From the sequence record PQ671645.1: a stretch of DNA of 64,000 bases; one strand, 5' to 3'. The translations under genes and the position numbers were made by a program. Positions within the stretch are counted from its first letter, which is position 1. The number at the start of each line of letters is the position of its first letter. Under the pieces are notes generated by a model. The model searched no databases, had not been told where the DNA came from, and saw only the letters and a list, made by a program, of their open reading frames with translations. Below, one piece after another: positions 3,071 through 52,039 of the stretch. This stretch comes from Escherichia phage DCP548.

Positions 3071-3706
3071 TCATTGTTCGCCTCGTAACATGGCACCTAG
3101 TGCACCGCCAGGGTGGAACTTAAGGAAATCATTAGAGGTAAATCCACGTTCAGACGAAAGGTTGATAGCAAACGTATCGATAAGCGCTAACAACAATGTA
3201 GTGGACATTGTCGGAGCTAAAGAGTTCTCGTCAACTTCTACAGCGATACCGGTACAGAACGTATAATCAAAAAGAGCTTCGTATTCTTGTGGAATGTCAG
3301 GGTTACAATGCAACAGAATCTGTTTGACGTTCGGACGAATCATTTTAAGATGCTTAGCCACGCCTATCATTTCTTCAGTTTTACCAGAACGACTAATATG
3401 AATCAACACATCATTAGGCGCAATGAATCCTGCATCACCGTGAGAATAATGCCCGGTGTTCAAGTACATACTCGGGATACCGAGTGAAGCAAATGTCTCA
3501 GAAGCTTTAGTTGCGATATTAGCGTTCTTACCAACACCTGTAATAATTACACGACTTTCATAATTACTAAGTCCAGGGCGTCGAAGAGTTTCTAGAATAG
3601 CATTATAACGAGCAGGGTTTTGACTAATTACTTTGGCCATAGCGGCCAAAGAAGAAGCTTGTTTTATGATTGCGTCAATAGCGATAGTAATAGGAGTAGT
3701 TTTCAT
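3071..3706 (-). CDS. D-arabinose-5-phosphate isomerase, SIS domain only (KdsD/GutQ/KpsF-like, no CBS pair)
   Basis: 211 aa. Block-for-block resemblance to the KdsD SIS domain: TFASLGIPS, HGDAGFI, ISRSGKTEE, LAPTMSTT, FHPGGALG. Confidence 0.7.
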   Translation of the reverse strand: MKTTPITIAIDAIIKQASSLAAMAKVISQNPARYNAILETLRRPGLSNYESRVIITGVGKNANIATKASETFASLGIPSMYLNTGHYSHGDAGFIAPNDVLIHISRSGKTEEMIGVAKHLKMIRPNVKQILLHCNPDIPQEYEALFDYTFCTGIAVEVDENSLAPTMSTTLLLALIDTFAINLSSERGFTSNDFLKFHPGGALGAMLRGEQ

Positions 3707-3746
3707 ATTTCTCTCATTTAATTAGTTTACCGTCCATGTCATTATA

Positions 3747-6458
3747 TCAAAAATCGAACATATCGAATAGAGATGCTTTCTTCTCGTAATCGAGTTTCGC
3801 TGCTGATGTGAATCCTTCAAGTGGTTTAATAAATGTCTTCTCAAGGAGAACAGTGTAGTCCATCCAATGAAGTACGTCGTCTTTAATTAAATCTGTGATT
3901 TCAGTACCAGAAGGCCATGCGATACATTTATCACCGAATGGGTTTCCTTCGCGTAAAGGCAGAACATATACTTTTTCACCTTCTACAACTTGCGGTGCAT
4001 CGATATTACCTTTGATAGCCCGGTTATACGTCAGAATTCCACGAATATGGAACGGGCATTTGGGACCAGGGAATCCACCTACATCATATTTAGCAATGTT
4101 ATTCGCAGAAGATACCGACGCGATGCTAATATAATTCAATTGACGGAATTCTTTTTCAAACTCTTTAAAATATTCTTGTAATGATTCTTCACCTTCTTGA
4201 AGCATACGACGAATACATTCTTTAAGAGCTTTCTGTACTGCTTTAGGAGTCGAAGATTTCTGAGTCTCTAGACCCATGATTTTGAGTTTAGGCTCAGCGT
4301 AACGAGTACCTTCCATATCCCACACGTTTAATGCATAACGTTTCTTACCAGTCCAGAATCCACCAATACCTTTAGAACCGAGTGGAGGACCAGCGATAGC
4401 TTCTCGGTCCATGAACATTAAGTGTTGTTTATTGTTCATGTATTCACACATTTCACGGAAACCTCTATCAATAGCTGGTTCCATACGTTCACGTGCAAAC
4501 TTATCTAAGAAGTCTACCCAATGGTTGGTATCACGGAATTTAGATTCACCAACCTTATCGATAATTTTATCAGCAGATACGTAAATAGAGTCTGTATCAC
4601 CATAAAGAACGAAAGCTTCACCTTCTGTGCCACAAACTTCATTCAGATATTCATTAACTTTACGTTCAATCCACTGTAAAGCCATTTGACCAAATGTTGT
4701 GATTGCAGTAGCATTACGCAAATCATAATAACGAAACCAAACGTTGCCAAGTGCACCATAAAGTGAGTTGATAAGCAATTTACGGTTAATTTGGGCAGTC
4801 ATACCTGCAACTTCAGTACGTTGAGCTCTAAACAACATTTCATTAAGAGATTTAGCAGACAACTTTTTAATCTTTTCTTTAATCTCATCGCTGAAGTCGA
4901 AACGATAATCAACATCTAATGGTTCGTCAACAGAAAGATTAGGATTATGCAATGCCTCTTTAATTATTTCACCATTACGTTGAGCTGCAAGCATGTAACC
5001 TTTATGTTCTTTACGTTGATTAAAGACCTTAGTGATTTCAGTTGGAACTACACCATCACGGTCTTTATAATACATCATGCCGTTAGGAGAACAACTGTAC
5101 ACATCAGAAGGACGTTCAGCAACAGCGTTAATATAATCATGCAATGGAGCTACTTTAAACGTTCCTGCTATTGTTTCTGGGCTAATATTCACTTGGCGAA
5201 TAATACTTGGATACAGAGATGTAAGGTCGAAACTCATTACATATTTGTATCGATTTGGAATAGGTTCCTTAACAAAAGCGCCGGGATAAGGTTGAACCGG
5301 GTGAGAACGACCTTGTGGAATCACCTTGTTCTGCTCTTTAAGGCTATTAAAAATAATAGCATCCCATGTTTTAATTGGGCTAAACACAGATTGAATCTGT
5401 ATCTTAGCATAATAACCCATGTCCAAACTCAAGTTGATGAACTGACGCTTAGCATCAATTTGCAATACACGATACACATCGATAATGTTATAAGAAATAT
5501 ATCGTTGGTGATTGCTTTCACGAAGCTTAGAAATAGGGCCGTCATATTTCAGTTTACCAACGTTCAATTCAAATTCTGAAATGTAATCCAGAGAATATGA
5601 CGGCTGATTGGTAAAAGAGAATTTTTTGTAAAGGTCAATGTAATCAAGAACAGAGATACCGAATAATGTAATGATTTCACGAGAACCATACATGTTTTCG
5701 ATAACTTTAACACGAGTTTTACGATGTGGTGATAAACGTTTCGCAGTAGATTCGCCAAAAATATTCTTGATTCGGTTATACACATATGGAATATCAAATG
5801 ACTCAACGTTCCATCCAGTCAAAATGACAGGAGTTTTCTGTTGCCAGAAGTTGAGATATTCCATCAACAATTCTTTTTCGTTATCGAACGGCATATAAAT
5901 GATTTTATCGATAATTTCGGATGGAACTTCATCACCGCCTTGTTCTTGAAGCTTAGCAGCGATTTCAATAGACCATTCTTCTACATTACCATATGGAGAA
6001 TTCAATAGATCAAATACGTAGAACCTGTCGTCAATTGAGTCATAATGGGTGATAGCATCAATCGGATGTTTTGCTTGTGACGGCTCAGGGAACCCATCTG
6101 GAGATGTTACTTCGATGTCGAAGTTAGCCACACGAATTTTTGTATGGTCGTATTTGATTTCATAGTTATAAGTGTCAGACAAATACGCCAATTTGAAATC
6201 GTCCATGCCAAGTGCTTCAAGTCCGATATCTTCCATGCGTTTAATCCATTGTGAGGCATCACGCATATTGGCGAACAACTTACGAGTACACGGCTTACCG
6301 TAGATATCGAAATATTTCGTAGCCTGACTTTCTGGACAATGAGCAAACAGTGATGGTTTATATTCTACTTCACGAGTACGTTCACGGCCGTTAGAATCGA
6401 TGTAACGTTCAAAAATTGAATCACCAATCTGTTCAACCGTTAAGTAAAATTCTTTCAT
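3747..6458 (-). CDS. 43: DNA polymerase (family B)
   Basis: 903 aa; recognisable T4/RB69 gp43 sequence with exonuclease and polymerase motifs (FDIE, YGDTDS). Confidence 0.97.
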   Translation of the reverse strand: MKEFYLTVEQIGDSIFERYIDSNGRERTREVEYKPSLFAHCPESQATKYFDIYGKPCTRKLFANMRDASQWIKRMEDIGLEALGMDDFKLAYLSDTYNYEIKYDHTKIRVANFDIEVTSPDGFPEPSQAKHPIDAITHYDSIDDRFYVFDLLNSPYGNVEEWSIEIAAKLQEQGGDEVPSEIIDKIIYMPFDNEKELLMEYLNFWQQKTPVILTGWNVESFDIPYVYNRIKNIFGESTAKRLSPHRKTRVKVIENMYGSREIITLFGISVLDYIDLYKKFSFTNQPSYSLDYISEFELNVGKLKYDGPISKLRESNHQRYISYNIIDVYRVLQIDAKRQFINLSLDMGYYAKIQIQSVFSPIKTWDAIIFNSLKEQNKVIPQGRSHPVQPYPGAFVKEPIPNRYKYVMSFDLTSLYPSIIRQVNISPETIAGTFKVAPLHDYINAVAERPSDVYSCSPNGMMYYKDRDGVVPTEITKVFNQRKEHKGYMLAAQRNGEIIKEALHNPNLSVDEPLDVDYRFDFSDEIKEKIKKLSAKSLNEMLFRAQRTEVAGMTAQINRKLLINSLYGALGNVWFRYYDLRNATAITTFGQMALQWIERKVNEYLNEVCGTEGEAFVLYGDTDSIYVSADKIIDKVGESKFRDTNHWVDFLDKFARERMEPAIDRGFREMCEYMNNKQHLMFMDREAIAGPPLGSKGIGGFWTGKKRYALNVWDMEGTRYAEPKLKIMGLETQKSSTPKAVQKALKECIRRMLQEGEESLQEYFKEFEKEFRQLNYISIASVSSANNIAKYDVGGFPGPKCPFHIRGILTYNRAIKGNIDAPQVVEGEKVYVLPLREGNPFGDKCIAWPSGTEITDLIKDDVLHWMDYTVLLEKTFIKPLEGFTSAAKLDYEKKASLFDMFDF

Positions 6459-37446: not shown

Positions 37447-37776
37447 TTATACTCTAGGCTTTTGAGCTTGTTTGGTATTGGATTCCCATGCGGCTTTGGT
37501 AATTTTGTTAGCGGCATAACCAAAGGCATTAGATAGAACACCTTTAGAGTTGAATACATCCAATCCAATAAGTACACCGGCCGCGTTAAATTTAGGAGCA
37601 AAGTATGCATTAGTTTTAGAAAGAGCTTTTTTCAATTCAGGGTCTTGAACCAAACCATCAAAAACGCCTTTACTATTTACTTTATATGTTACTTTGGGAT
37701 TTTTACCTTCTTCGATAGCAGCTTTCTGTTCCGCAGATAATGTAACTTCAGTGATAAACTCTTGATACGTTTTCAT
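37447..37776 (-). CDS. Capsid internal protein (CTS-bearing; ipII/ipIII-type)
   Basis: N-terminal capsid targeting sequence MKTYQEFITE with a prohead-protease L/I-x-E site. Confidence 0.6.
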   Translation of the reverse strand: MKTYQEFITEVTLSAEQKAAIEEGKNPKVTYKVNSKGVFDGLVQDPELKKALSKTNAYFAPKFNAAGVLIGLDVFNSKGVLSNAFGYAANKITKAAWESNTKQAQKPRV

Positions 37777-37801
37777 TTTGTTCCTATTGTTTTAATTTAT
37801 G

Positions 37802-38116
37802 TTATTCTTTAGGGAAGTTTTTAGAGTATGCATCATAAAGTTTATTACCAATACGGCGGAAGACTTTAGCTGCAAAACGGTTTTCAGGGTTTTTAATCAT
37901 GATTTGCATCATGTAAGTTCCTGCATCCGAAAGAGCTTCTTCATAGTACCCATTAATTTCTTTAAGAGTCCTACGTTTACCACCAGGACCATCAACAGTA
38001 ATTTTCCATTTACCTGTAGAAGTGCGGCTCGGTGGCTCAACTTGTTCAATCCAAATATAACCACCTTCAACGCGTTGGTTGGCGGATTCTGCAATAAATT
38101 CTTTATACGTTTTCAT
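37802..38116 (-). CDS. Capsid internal protein (CTS-bearing)
   Basis: N-terminal MKTYKEFIAES. Confidence 0.6.
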   Translation of the reverse strand: MKTYKEFIAESANQRVEGGYIWIEQVEPPSRTSTGKWKITVDGPGGKRRTLKEINGYYEEALSDAGTYMMQIMIKNPENRFAAKVFRRIGNKLYDAYSKNFPKE

Positions 38117-38180
38117 TTTTTGTTTCCTTGTTTGTTTTGATAGAGTAATTATACCATATTAATACTTAAGCGTAAACAAT

Positions 38181-38441
38181 TTAAGCTTTACCGCCAGAAA
38201 TAATTCCGAAGTTGTTAAAATCGTATCCAATATCGTCAACATCTACTTTAGGACTTACTACAACATAAGCAATTTCACTACGTTTTGCATAGGTGTTGAT
38301 TTCTTTACCATCGCCACCTAAGAAAGAATACCCATTACGTTTTAATGAGCCAAAGTCTTCCGCATCACCAATGAAAGCTTTAACTTTAAATTTGGGGTCT
38401 TTGGCATCTGCTTCAGTGATAAATTCTTGATACATTTTCAT
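38181..38441 (-). CDS. Capsid internal protein (CTS-bearing)
   Basis: N-terminal MKMYQEFITEA. Confidence 0.55.
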   Translation of the reverse strand: MKMYQEFITEADAKDPKFKVKAFIGDAEDFGSLKRNGYSFLGGDGKEINTYAKRSEIAYVVVSPKVDVDDIGYDFNNFGIISGGKA

Positions 38442-38447
38442 TTTTCC

Positions 38448-38861
38448 TTAGTAAATTGATTTACCATAGTATTTGTACCAAGTCGGACGTTGAGCAATTT
38501 TTTCGTCTAAGCGTGCTTGACTTATCGCAATGGACGCTTCGGACGGGACATAATTATTACGAAATTCGGCAGGGATGTCGGAAATATCCTGGACAGTCGT
38601 GTCCTTGATTTTGAAACCACGTTTCAAGCATTCGGCGATTAGCTCGATTTGACGTAAACGTAAAAATTCGAGTTTGTCGTAAAAGAATGTTACGTGACCT
38701 GTGCCTAAGATAAATGTTGGAGAGATTTTAAAATCCTTGACACGTTTACCATTTTGAACATGTTTACGGACTGCACCAAATACGCGTGGTAATTCACGAT
38801 ACTCGGCCATAAGATGTTGGTCAGTCAGTTCAGAAACAAGTGTTAAATTGATACGAGTCAT
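38448..38861 (-). CDS. denV: Endonuclease V (pyrimidine dimer DNA glycosylase)
   Basis: Near-identical to remembered T4 endo V ([34 protein letters not shown]). Confidence 0.95.
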
Positions 38862-38919
38862 AATTTCCTCCAAGTAGTTGATGAATGTATAGTATCAAAA
38901 CCCTTGGAGGAAGTAAACA

Positions 38920-39201
38920 CTATTTTTCTGAAGCGCCTGAAATATATTTTTCAAGACGTTGTTTCATCAGCGAGCCGTTCTTAGCGATTTCTTCCGGTTT
39001 ATCGCACATACGTAACAAGGCTTCAAGCTTAGCGATATCGCTGGTACGTTCAAATTTGCGAGTATCTATCTTACTAGCAAGTTCAGAAATACGTGCTAAT
39101 AGACTTTCGGCTTCAACCAAAGCTGCACCTAACTTAGTTGCAAATGTGTCAGTAGCTTCGTTAAGAATAGATTCTGATAAAAATTCACTATATGTTTTCA
39201 T
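38920..39201 (-). CDS. Capsid internal protein (CTS-bearing)
   Basis: Internal Met begins [11 protein letters not shown]; the track start is an upstream extension. Confidence 0.5.
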
Positions 39202-39686
39202 ATATACGCTTTCCAAGTTCCTGTTTTAAATGTTGAGATTACGCGTTTCGCGCGATTAGGTGTCTGACGATACCATTTAGATTGTGCTAGATTTACTGCC
39301 GCTTCATCCCAACGTTTCTGTTGAAGCATACGAAGAGAATTAGTAAAACCAGCGACGCCTGCTACACCCATTTGGAAGACCATATTGACCAATGCACATC
39401 GACGAACCGCATCTAAAGAATCATATACCGGTTTAAGTTTAACATTACCCAAGATTCCGCGAACAGCTTTATCAACGTCTTCGTTAAATAACTTTTCAGC
39501 CTCATCAAGGGTAATTGTACCGTTGCATTTACGCCCGATCATTCTGTCAAGTTCAGCTTTAGCTACAGCTAAAGACGGGTTCTTTGTTACTAAATGACCT
39601 ATGCCAATTGTCCAAAAGCCTTCAGTGTCTTTGTATAAAGTCAGTCTAAGACCTTCGTCATTACGAAGCATTTCAAATATATTCAT
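39198..39686 (-). CDS. e: Lysozyme (endolysin, T4 e-type)
   Basis: [27 protein letters not shown]; close match to T4 lysozyme. Confidence 0.95.
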
Positions 39687-39720
39687 AATACCTCCCACGT
39701 TTATAGGAGGTATTTATTAC

Positions 39721-48708: not shown

Positions 48709-49377
48709 TTACACTATAGAAGCAATTAAATTGTTTACTTTATCATCTTTATAAACTTCAGAATAGTGGAGTTCATAAATTTCCCAGCCCAGGGATTTTA
48801 TAATATCATGTCTTTCCTGATAATATGGGGCCAGAATTTTCTTGTTATGATCGGAGTAATGTTGGTTACCGTTAACTTCAATAATTATTTTCTTATCCAT
48901 CAAAGCAATGTCACAGGAATATGCTCTATTTTTAACAGGTTGATATTCCTCAACAAATTGTATATTTGCTTCTATTAATTTATTTTTCAAAAATTCGCAC
49001 GGAACAGATTTGAATTTTGAATTCTTTTTCCAAGGGTGTTTATCTGGATTTTCCTTTAACCAGGTCTTCCGGGCTGCTGATATCTTTTGTTTGGATTCAG
49101 ACGAATGCTTTCGTCCTGTGCCTGCAGCAGACAATTTTTCTCTTGTTTCTTCAGAAACAACTAAAGAAATGCCCTTCTTTTTGGCAACCATGAATTGATT
49201 TAAATTACCAGATTCTTTGCGTGCTTTATTCATAGCAGCGACTGCATTTTTAGAACCCTCTTTATAAGAGGCGAGTTTTGGATTTTCAGAACACCATCTG
49301 GTATGACTTGCCATCCATCCCTTTGGTTTATCAGAAATATCAAATTCTTTATTGCAGTGTTTGCAGATGCTCATCAA
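48709..49377 (-). CDS. Putative free-standing homing-type endonuclease (zinc finger, NUMOD3-like repeats, Vsr/DUF559-like PD-(D/E)xK domain)
   Basis: N-terminal CKHC...HTRWC; repeats SEETREKLSAAGTGRK and SESKQKISAARK; C-terminal IIIEVNGNQHY. Confidence 0.45.
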   Translation of the reverse strand: MMSICKHCNKEFDISDKPKGWMASHTRWCSENPKLASYKEGSKNAVAAMNKARKESGNLNQFMVAKKKGISLVVSEETREKLSAAGTGRKHSSESKQKISAARKTWLKENPDKHPWKKNSKFKSVPCEFLKNKLIEANIQFVEEYQPVKNRAYSCDIALMDKKIIIEVNGNQHYSDHNKKILAPYYQERHDIIKSLGWEIYELHYSEVYKDDKVNNLIASIV

Positions 49378-49433: not shown

Positions 49434-49508
49434 TGGTGACCCTGGCTGGTTTCGATCCAGCTACCTATCAGTTATGAGCTGACAGCTCTCCCATTGAGCT
49501 ACAGGGCC
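49434..49508 (-). tRNA. tRNA with anticodon CAU (Met, or Ile if lysidine-modified), CCA encoded
   Basis: Hand-folded cloverleaf: acceptor GGCCCTG/CAGGGTC, D-stem GCTC/GAGC, anticodon stem GTCAG/CTGAT with loop CTCATAA, T-stem GCTGG/CCAGC, 3' ACCA. T-loop ATCGAAA is atypical. Confidence 0.7.
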
Positions 49509-50775: not shown

Positions 50776-50956
50776 TTTTATCCATAACGATAGCGATTAA
50801 GCCGATTAGAAATGCTACTACCAATGAGATAGAGTTTTCAGTTGTTGTCAGTAGTCCACAAATGAATCCTACAAACATCGAAAAACTAAAAGCCATTGAA
50901 GCAATTACTACAGCAACATTACGAATCAGTTCAGCGCGTTTCATTTTATTCTCCAT
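50759..50956 (-). CDS. Small membrane protein
   Basis: 65 aa, two hydrophobic helices. Confidence 0.4.
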   Translation of the reverse strand: MENKMKRAELIRNVAVVIASMAFSFSMFVGFICGLLTTTENSISLVVAFLIGLIAIVMDKIAKGE

Positions 50957-51012
50957 TTACTCATTTGTTTTGATAGGACTACTATAACATAGTCCTATCA
51001 TCATGTAAACTA

Positions 51013-51276
51013 TTAAATACCAGCTTCGCGTTTAACATAATCGACGTAAGCTTGGATAGCTTTCTTGCTGGTAATTTTTACCTGACCACGACCATTGCCT
51101 TCTTTAGAGTTTTTCTTAACAACTACATTACCATCTTTAACACCCCATACATGGACGTAAGTACCGATGTTTCGGTCGTAGAACATTGCATGGTCGTTGT
51201 TGTAAGAGAATGATTCGTAGTTCTCTGTCAGAGTAGAAGATTGAGATTCGGCGATAAATTCTTTATAGGTTTTCAT
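51013..51276 (-). CDS. ipI: Capsid internal protein (ipI position, CTS-bearing)
   Basis: N-terminal MKTYKEFIAES; directly upstream of 57B as ipI is in T4. Confidence 0.55.
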   Translation of the reverse strand: MKTYKEFIAESQSSTLTENYESFSYNNDHAMFYDRNIGTYVHVWGVKDGNVVVKKNSKEGNGRGQVKITSKKAIQAYVDYVKREAGI

Positions 51277-51353
51277 TTTATTTCCTTGAGGCTGTTTATT
51301 TGATAGGATGATAGTAACACACCATCATCCTTATGTAAACTGTTTTGTGAAAA

Positions 51354-52039
<686 letters not shown>

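Follow-up and report, generated by a model that had tools for sequence, protein, structure and literature searches.

The closest described relatives of the genes studied here are the internal proteins (Ips) of phage T4 and its kin, a diverse set of defense proteins that share only a capsid targeting sequence (CTS) and that have been known since 1994 (PMC3012670). T4 itself has three, as an earlier note on the DNA analyzed here correctly said. IPII and IPIII begin with the CTS MKTYQEFIAE, while IPI, which is described in the literature as processed, packaged and injected (PMC3012670), begins with MKTFKEF and is cleaved after ITE19. In IPIII, residues 4 and 7 govern capsid targeting and residues 8 and 10 govern processing (reviewed in PMC9026906), and the 10 CTS residues by themselves direct foreign proteins into T4 heads (Mullaney & Black 1996, summarized in PMC9026906). 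Ip1, Ip2 and Ip3 each inhibit one distinct variant of the type IV restriction enzyme GmrSD, according to a study that noted "at least 10" Ips (Silas et al. 2025, PMC12373910). Because Bas37_0260, a CTS protein of Tequatrovirus KarlGJung, inhibits McrBC (HIDEN-SEQ preprint, bioRxiv 10.1101/2025.11.20.689424), the targets of Ips extend beyond GmrSD. Here, we analyzed a stretch of 64,000 nucleotides (nt) from Escherichia phage DCP548 (sequence record PQ671645.1), hereafter referred to as the window, in which six open reading frames (ORFs A to F; Table 1) begin with a decapeptide like the CTS of IPII and IPIII. We consider it likely that these six genes encode T-even-type Ips that are packaged by means of the CTS, that each cargo probably blocks a specific host defense, and that the genes behave as cassettes.

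We searched the six-frame translation of the window for the pattern MK.Y.EF and obtained six matches, where 0.011 would be expected from residue frequencies. All six lie on the minus strand, each at the start of an ORF, and the six starts fit the longer pattern MK[TSM]Y.EF[IL].E. M1, K2, Y4, E6 and F7 occur in 6/6 ORFs, and Y4, F7, [IL]8 and E10 are invariant. Residues 8 to 10 read, from A to F, ITE, IAE, ITE, LSE, LTE and IAE, and are followed by V, S, A, S, Q and S, respectively. Each of the six decapeptides ends at a predicted L/I-x-E cleavage motif of the prohead protease (gp21), as the earlier note had claimed. Relaxed CTS patterns gave no additional candidates within the window, and a scan of the portion of the ST0 genome (~98% identical) that lies outside the window equivalent gave no additional CTS ORFs, so the six are probably the whole CTS complement of this phage type.

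The decapeptide is also retained in diverged orthologs, whose mature parts are 32-50% identical to those of the window. The A-like protein of Dhakavirus PSD9 (32% identity) begins with MKTYQQFITE, the B-like protein of Karamvirus CC31 (50%) with MKTYNEFITE, and the D-like protein of Gaprivervirus RZ (47%) with MKTYQTFITE. E-like proteins begin with MKSYTQFLNE in phage wV7 and with MKFKEFLAE in the Klebsiella T4-like phage RCIP0032 (L010 1477-2010; L numbers denote comparison loci throughout), where the tag is one residue shorter and the protein is annotated "hypothetical." We note several defects in the RB69 record (NC_004928): a -1/+1 frameshift pair in ORF127c (4621-4902) swaps out CTS residues 5-12 (MKTYMNFYQN), ORF123c (3148-3477) carries E10A at the cleavage site, and the 3′ end of ORF124c (3546-3818) is frameshifted. 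These are either natural tag decay or errors of an old sequence.

We assigned the window to a Mosigvirus (RB69-like); its cluster A-D shares 97.7-98.6% identity with Mosigvirus genomes, RB69 among them. The minus-strand order around this cluster, vs.8 – A – B – C – denV – D – e – nudE, matches that of RB69 (RB69ORF123c, 124c, 125c, denV, 127c, e). The placement of four ORFs around denV and of two at separate sites was confirmed, with denV and e sitting among A-D. The equivalent T4 interval is denV – ipII – ipIII – e, and T4 ipI sits between trna.4 and 57B. By synteny with T4 and RB69, A-D occupy the ipII/ipIII position and F occupies the ipI position by 57B; in all, the classical hyperplastic ip loci, denV–e and 57B–trna.4, account for five of the six ORFs. 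As 57B is Acb1, the ip1 locus adjoins a known anti-defense gene. ORF E lies outside both loci, at a third site between the e.x genes and a tRNA gene, where Tequatrovirus Bas37 also has CTS ORFs (L133 1029-2191): the E homolog bas37_0244 and, following it, a second CTS ORF, bas37_0243 (MKTYAEFLTE, 187 amino acids [aa]), both annotated "hypothetical." The genes for a head maturation protease (gp21 type), the scaffold-core proteins that receive CTS proteins (gp22/67/68) and Alt are present in ST0 and lie outside the window. The conserved targeting and processing residues, the retention of the CTS in diverged orthologs, the location of 5/6 ORFs in classical ip loci and the ST0 machinery bear out the earlier identification of these proteins as T4-type capsid-targeted Ips. 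All six ORFs exist at the coordinates of Table 1; for D, the end at 39216 given earlier corresponds to an upstream in-frame TTG, and the ATG of the CTS lies at 39201.

Table 1. CTS-bearing ORFs, promoter elements and context genes in the 64,000-nt window (pI, isoelectric point of the predicted mature part)
Feature	Position	Strand	Description
ORF A, 109 aa	37447..37776	-	CTS MKTYQEFITE at 37747-37776; mature part 99 aa, pI 9.7; ortholog of RB69ORF123c
ORF B, 104 aa	37802..38116	-	CTS MKTYKEFIAE; mature part 94 aa, pI 9.6
Sigma-70-type promoter before B	38148..38176	-	TTTACG, 17-nt spacer, TATAAT, TG before -10; 10/12 matches
ORF C, 86 aa	38181..38441	-	CTS MKMYQEFITE; mature part 76 aa, pI 5.2; starts 6 nt past denV stop
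denV, pyrimidine-dimer glycosylase	38448..38873	-	Pfam Pyr_excise 3.6e-14; RB69 annotation; context gene within the locus
ORF D, 93 aa	38920..39201	-	Mature part 83 aa, pI 6.3; ATG overlaps e stop codon (ATGA); second L-x-E site ILNE
e, T4-type lysozyme	39198..39698	-	Pfam Phage_lysozyme 2e-14; context gene
ORF E, 154 aa	47435..47899	-	CTS MKSYAEFLTE; mature part 144 aa, pI 9.6
ORF F, 87 aa	51013..51276	-	CTS MKTYKEFIAE; mature part 77 aa, pI 9.2; sole gene of the classical ip1 locus here
Cassette head of F	51277..51345	-	Promoter-like GTTTAC, 17-nt spacer, TACTAT; 12-bp hairpin across -10; CTATCAAA; AAGGAAA ribosome-binding site
57B = Acb1, 2H phosphoesterase against the cyclic-oligonucleotide-based antiphage signaling system (CBASS)	51354..51809	-	Pfam Acb1 1.3e-58; flanks the ip1 locus

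With the ten CTS residues removed, all pairs among the six mature parts gave BLASTP E > 0.2, in agreement with the earlier statement that the mature parts are unrelated to each other. PHROGs places A together with B (phrog_3966). We rejected this grouping, as hhalign of the mature-part alignments gives a probability of 0.2%, indicating that the grouping was caused by the CTS. No mature part matched T4 IpI, IpII or IpIII at BLASTP E < 0.2, tblastn found no ipI, ipII or ipIII in the window, and sequence searches of the six proteins against Pfam, NCBIfam and the PDB returned nothing significant.

To describe the distribution of the cargoes, we searched 50,697 phage records by tblastn. Cargoes A to F were found in 90, 189, 215, 496, 510 and 35 records, respectively, all of them T4-like. 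The accessory character and patchy distribution of these genes, combined with unrelated cargo domains, are those of the Ip class. ORF A (phrog_3966, unknown function) is annotated "hypothetical" in all records listed save one, which is labeled "RNA polymerase ADP-ribosylase." ORF B is 71-72% identical over 94-104 aa to "Ip10" of Shigella phage SP18, whose own annotation points to similarity with Ip10 of phage Pol, and on this identity we assign ORF B to the Ip10 family. The records with B include Karamvirus CC31, and RB69ORF124c is the same gene with its frameshifted 3′ end. ORF C corresponds to RB69p125, annotated "internal head protein," and matches phrog_2667 "internal head protein" (5.6e-22). 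Ip7 of phage Shf125875 matches the same PHROG (4e-42), yet C and Ip7 have no BLASTP similarity, and PHROG co-membership was CTS-driven in the case of A and B. Two short ORFs annotated "internal head protein" (one of 43 aa plus a second piece) divide the C-like gene of Tequatrovirus Lutter (L012 1961-2222), which looks like a frameshifted pseudogene belonging to this Ip family. ORF D matches phrog_3499 "internal head protein" (2.1e-46), and RefSeq, too, uses this name for C and D. Homologs 47% identical to D are located at the ip1 locus of Tequatrovirus and Gaprivervirus and still begin with MKTYQTFITE or MKTFKEF.

ORF E (phrog_2280, unknown function) has ~77% identical copies in many Tequatrovirus genomes and is "hypothetical" in all records listed; it was not found in T4 62-77 kb. 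The AlphaFold2 model of E is two-domain and all-helical, with a predicted local distance difference test (pLDDT) score of 74, and Foldseek against the PDB gave no match better than E = 0.57 and a template modeling (TM) score of 0.31. ORF F (phrog_13302) is likewise "hypothetical" in the records listed. Its predicted mature part starts at residue 11 (SQSSTLTENYESFSYNNDHAMFYDR), an exhaustive HMMER search with the cargo gave 4 hits among 1.84 billion representative proteins, and its AlphaFold model (pLDDT 52.6) is too poor for a fold search. We note that the homolog searches were shallow, with 10, 3 and 2 clusters. The F cargo also occurs, at 66% identity, as a CTS-less protein of 72-73 aa (MKTLNINSFFYN...) in Dhakavirus IME08 (L011 ~1996-2204) and IME341, as well as in P0015 and P0017. 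In Dhakavirus, it sits between gene 52 and motA, in the early region, and it is unannotated in IME08. From this CTS-less homolog, it follows that the F cargo exists both tagged and untagged.

The content of the ip1 locus varies among close relatives: Shf125875 has Ip1 and Ip7, O157 typing phage 3 (O157tp3) has Ip1 and F, and the phage studied here has F alone. Window positions 51254-51900 are 99% identical to the ip1 head and 57B of O157tp3, and positions 50900-51341 match its F. Upstream of F, the window and O157tp3 share 99% identity over the ip1 promoter and leader and the first 23 nt of that gene's CTS; downstream, the window sequence switches to F. The ip1 body is absent here, and the junction lies inside the repeated head and CTS (window 51254-51345 compared to L003 5013-5455 of O157tp3), which is consistent with recombination between repeated cassette heads, either as a loss here or as a gain there. 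Other genomes vary in the number of CTS ORFs: the ip1 locus of Gaprivervirus RZ by itself contains five, three follow denV in SP18, and a 28-kb stretch of Tequatrovirus Bas37 contains at least four. The description of the set as expanded therefore stands relative to T4 but not relative to other T-even genera, which carry as many or more.

The promoter of B aligns with the promoter-leader "cassette head" of the ip1-locus genes. B and F have in common a head of ~90 nt, composed of GTTTAC, 17 nt, TA..AT, CTATCAAA, GGAAA and ATGAAAAC.TA.AAAGAATTTAT, and the same head precedes T4 ipI, Bas37_0260/0261, Shf125875 Ip7 and O157tp3 Ip1 and F. The hairpin of the F head has a predicted energy of -15.4 kcal/mol (z = -3.5). 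A strong hairpin with the -10 hexamer in its loop or upper stem was found in 5/6 ip1-locus heads tested (-14.6 to -18.9 kcal/mol, z -2.8 to -5.8; window 51296-51345, L003 5032-5081, L004 11899-11948, L133 5807-5856 and L002 5135-5184). The sixth, the head of Ip1 in O157tp3, folds only weakly (-8.9 kcal/mol, z -1.3), and the ORF B head has no hairpin. The stems vary in sequence between cassettes while keeping their self-complementarity. RNAalifold predicted nothing on the cassette heads, because the hairpins revealed by single-sequence folds are in different registers. The head hairpin may matter in read-through transcripts.

T4 IPI-III and the six proteins described here are alike in their N-terminal CTS, in the two genomic loci (for all of the six but E), in their small size, in their non-conserved cargo and in the promoter-leader head at the ipI locus. 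They differ in their mature parts, which lack similarity and fall into PHROGs 4363, 7857 and 5341 in T4 compared to 3966, 2667, 3499, 2280 and 13302 here. None of the six gave a BLASTP or tblastn hit to T4 IPI*, IPII or IPIII at E <= 1e-3 or a significant PDB relative. RB69 and other Mosigvirus genomes keep ipI, and RB69 relies on its IPI homolog; the phage studied here lacks ipI as well as ipII and ipIII. The DNA to be protected also differs, with arabinosylated cytosines in this phage type and glucosylated cytosines in T4. GmrSD-family enzymes cleave the arabinosylated DNA of Mosigvirus (PMC6024577, PMC13390438). Bas37_0260 resembles the six in being small and CTS-bearing, in lying in the ipI locus and in using the same cassette head. 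We tested it for homology to each of the six and found none; it belongs to phrog_8111.

Reportedly, Repoila, Tetart, Bouet and Krisch described Ip4 to Ip12 of T4-related phages in 1994 (EMBO J 13:4181), from hyperplastic ip regions. The set described here represents the same phenomenon, namely CTS ORFs of variable number, order and identity in ip loci, with Ip7 in relatives where this phage has F. It differs in that A, E and F have no Ip name in any record examined and in that the site of E is not one of the two loci treated in earlier publications. Pre-packaged, injected anti-defense or takeover proteins are also known elsewhere, including the T4 ADP-ribosyltransferase Alt, DarA/DarB of phage P1 and the ejection proteins of phiKZ and SPN3US. 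These share with the six the strategy of loading effectors into the capsid to act at DNA entry. They differ in their other targeting signals and much larger cargoes, some of them enzymes, whereas the six are small and have no recognizable domain. The prohead protease cleaves off propeptides in T4 Alt and in SPN3US (PMC9026906).

We propose that the CTS decapeptide would attach each protein to the core scaffold while the prohead is being assembled and that a gp21-type protease would then cut after Glu10, with a possible second cut at the L-x-E site in D and in E orthologs. The freed mature protein (76-144 aa) would remain among the packaged DNA and be ejected with it into the next host and, because the two enter together, would be there before any phage gene expression. 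Each unrelated cargo would then most likely bind and block one specific host nuclease or other defense that attacks arabinosylated-cytosine DNA, as T4 Ip1-3 do for three GmrSD variants and Bas37_0260 does for McrBC. The genes would act as cassettes, at least B and F having a promoter-leader-CTS head of their own, and cargoes would be gained or lost as repeated heads recombine. On the strength of the T4 experiments, from which packaging, cleavage and injection would follow, it is highly probable that the six are packaged via the CTS and trimmed by the prohead protease. The anti-defense role and its targets are proposed more cautiously, by analogy with T4 Ip1-3 and Bas37_0260, and we lean only slightly toward at least some of the six being specific inhibitors of modification-dependent nucleases or other defenses.

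Several observations weigh against this proposal. Ip4 to Ip10, including the family of ORF B (Ip10), gave no reproducible hit against 15 GmrSD groups (PMC12373910), and no homology was seen between the six and the Ips whose targets are known (Ip1, Ip2, Ip3 and Bas37_0260). The searches and models of the six gave no fold or domain clue to a mechanism, and our literature search found no virion proteome of a Mosigvirus. The mature parts of A, B, E and F (pI 9.2-9.7) are basic, which would also fit a plain role as DNA counter-ions. The T4 late promoter TATAAATA has no perfect copy immediately upstream of A-F, and sites with 1 mismatch occur only before E and before e, the latter as AATAAATA 20 nt upstream of e. 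B and F carry early-type sigma-70 promoters instead, and with no exact late promoter present, late expression must come via read-through or variant promoters. Finally, the CTS-less homolog of F suggests that this cargo works somewhere without a CTS.

The basic mature parts recall how Ips were viewed historically, mainly as nonspecific basic counter-ions or as filler for condensed DNA; on that view, the six would be packaged but would have no specific host target, and their diversity would reflect weak constraint. Solid-state NMR (nuclear magnetic resonance) places IP lysines in contact with DNA phosphates in T4 heads (PMC3012670), and the absence of a detectable GmrSD target for Ip4-10 also fits. 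However, C and D are neutral or acidic (pI 6.3 and 5.2 for D and C, respectively), every Ip with a reported target has a specific one (Ip1, Ip2, Ip3 and Bas37_0260), and orthologs are 30-80% identical across genera with many invariant positions, implying more constraint than a filler needs. We find this explanation unlikely. A different use of the genes is suggested by the strong early-type promoters of B and F and the lack of a consensus late promoter: some of the six, in particular these two, might not be virion cargo, or not only, and might be early cytoplasmic proteins made immediately on infection under the control of sigma-70-type promoters of their own, in which case the decapeptide would be a cassette head that was inherited and matters little. 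The untagged F cargo between gene 52 and motA in IME08 and IME341, and in P0017, would fit, as would the RB69 record, in which ORF127c has lost its CTS and ORF123c carries E10A, yet the ORFs stay open. Against this, T4 ipI has the same promoter head, yet its product is described as packaged and injected; the peptide is conserved at the amino-acid level despite synonymous codon changes; and the authors who described Bas37_0260, which uses the same cassette head, treat the motif as a packaging signal. We judge such a role improbable.

The earlier note had also raised the possibility that the N-terminal similarity is an artifact of a shared translation-initiation region or promoter cassette and not a functional peptide. 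This concern has a real basis for B and F, in which, as in ip1-locus genes of other phages, the ~90 nt preceding the ATG form a shared stretch of promoter, leader and ribosome-binding site, but it cannot explain the other four. The DNA upstream of A, C, D and E is unrelated: A begins 25 nt past B and C begins 6 nt past denV, D overlaps e, and E has its own leader. Among the six, the decapeptide codons vary synonymously (ACG/ACA/ACC/TCA, GAG/GAA, ATC/ATT/TTA/TTG), while residues 1, 2, 4, 6, 7, 8 and 10 are kept. In the IMG/VR scan described below, the positions left free by the search pattern are non-random among the matches listed, with T/S at residue 3 in 82/102 and S/A at residue 11 in 69/102. 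Moreover, the ability of the 10 residues alone to target foreign proteins into T4 heads (PMC9026906) would be hard to reconcile with an artifact, which we regard as very improbable. CTS-directed packaging of specific anti-defense cargoes remains our preferred explanation for the six genes.

A separate feature of the window lies near the E locus. A 222-aa ORF (48709-49377) has a NUMOD3 motif and a DUF559/RAP nuclease-like C-terminus and is likely a homing endonuclease. It adjoins a tRNA-Met gene (49434-49508), the sole tRNA gene found in the window. Related Mosigvirus genomes have tRNA-Arg, and sometimes tRNA-Asn, annotated at this site, and the stretch is only ~85% identical to them.

We also scanned IMG/VR with a degenerate CTS DNA pattern, yielding at least 120 loci (L013-L132) that represent a sample and not a census. 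Among the matches listed, at least 102 CTS-like peptides stand at ORF starts, and they head at least 65 unrelated cargo clusters. Many of the contigs carry ORFs of replication-gene size that are only 25-45% identical to those of this phage, taken by size only as gp43-47 and gp55. The tagged cargoes among the matches listed include an S-adenosylmethionine (S-AdoMet, SAM) lyase family of at least 15 members (1.4e-15), a LigT-like and weakly Acb1-like 2H phosphoesterase (1.7e-8), an ADP-ribosyltransferase (1.8e-17), DUF6267 and a cytidylyltransferase-like protein. Example tagged ORFs are L014 235-759, L017 3988-4524, L118 2774-3727 and L053 648-1832, and L053 has three tagged ORFs in tandem.

Since the F cargo occurs with and without its tag, and since the same decapeptide heads unrelated cargoes and is found on distant contigs, we tentatively hypothesize that the CTS is a portable "inject me" tag across the T4 superfamily, one that would turn cytoplasmic counter-defense proteins into pre-loaded first-strike effectors, and that the six cargoes include inhibitors of defenses beyond GmrSD and McrBC. 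The value of the six genes as a discovery is small, as the class has already been described in print, along with its loci, variability and likely role, and the idea has been in the literature since 1994; A, E and F add three unannotated families to the known class, together with a third locus. Because this phage has a different DNA modification and none of the characterized Ips, its six cargoes form a ready list of candidate inhibitors of still-unmatched defenses, which would be useful for host-range prediction in phage therapy. Injected Ips are the first phage products to meet the host. If the environmental tags work as they do in T4, injection of enzymatic counter-defenses would be widespread in the T4 superfamily.

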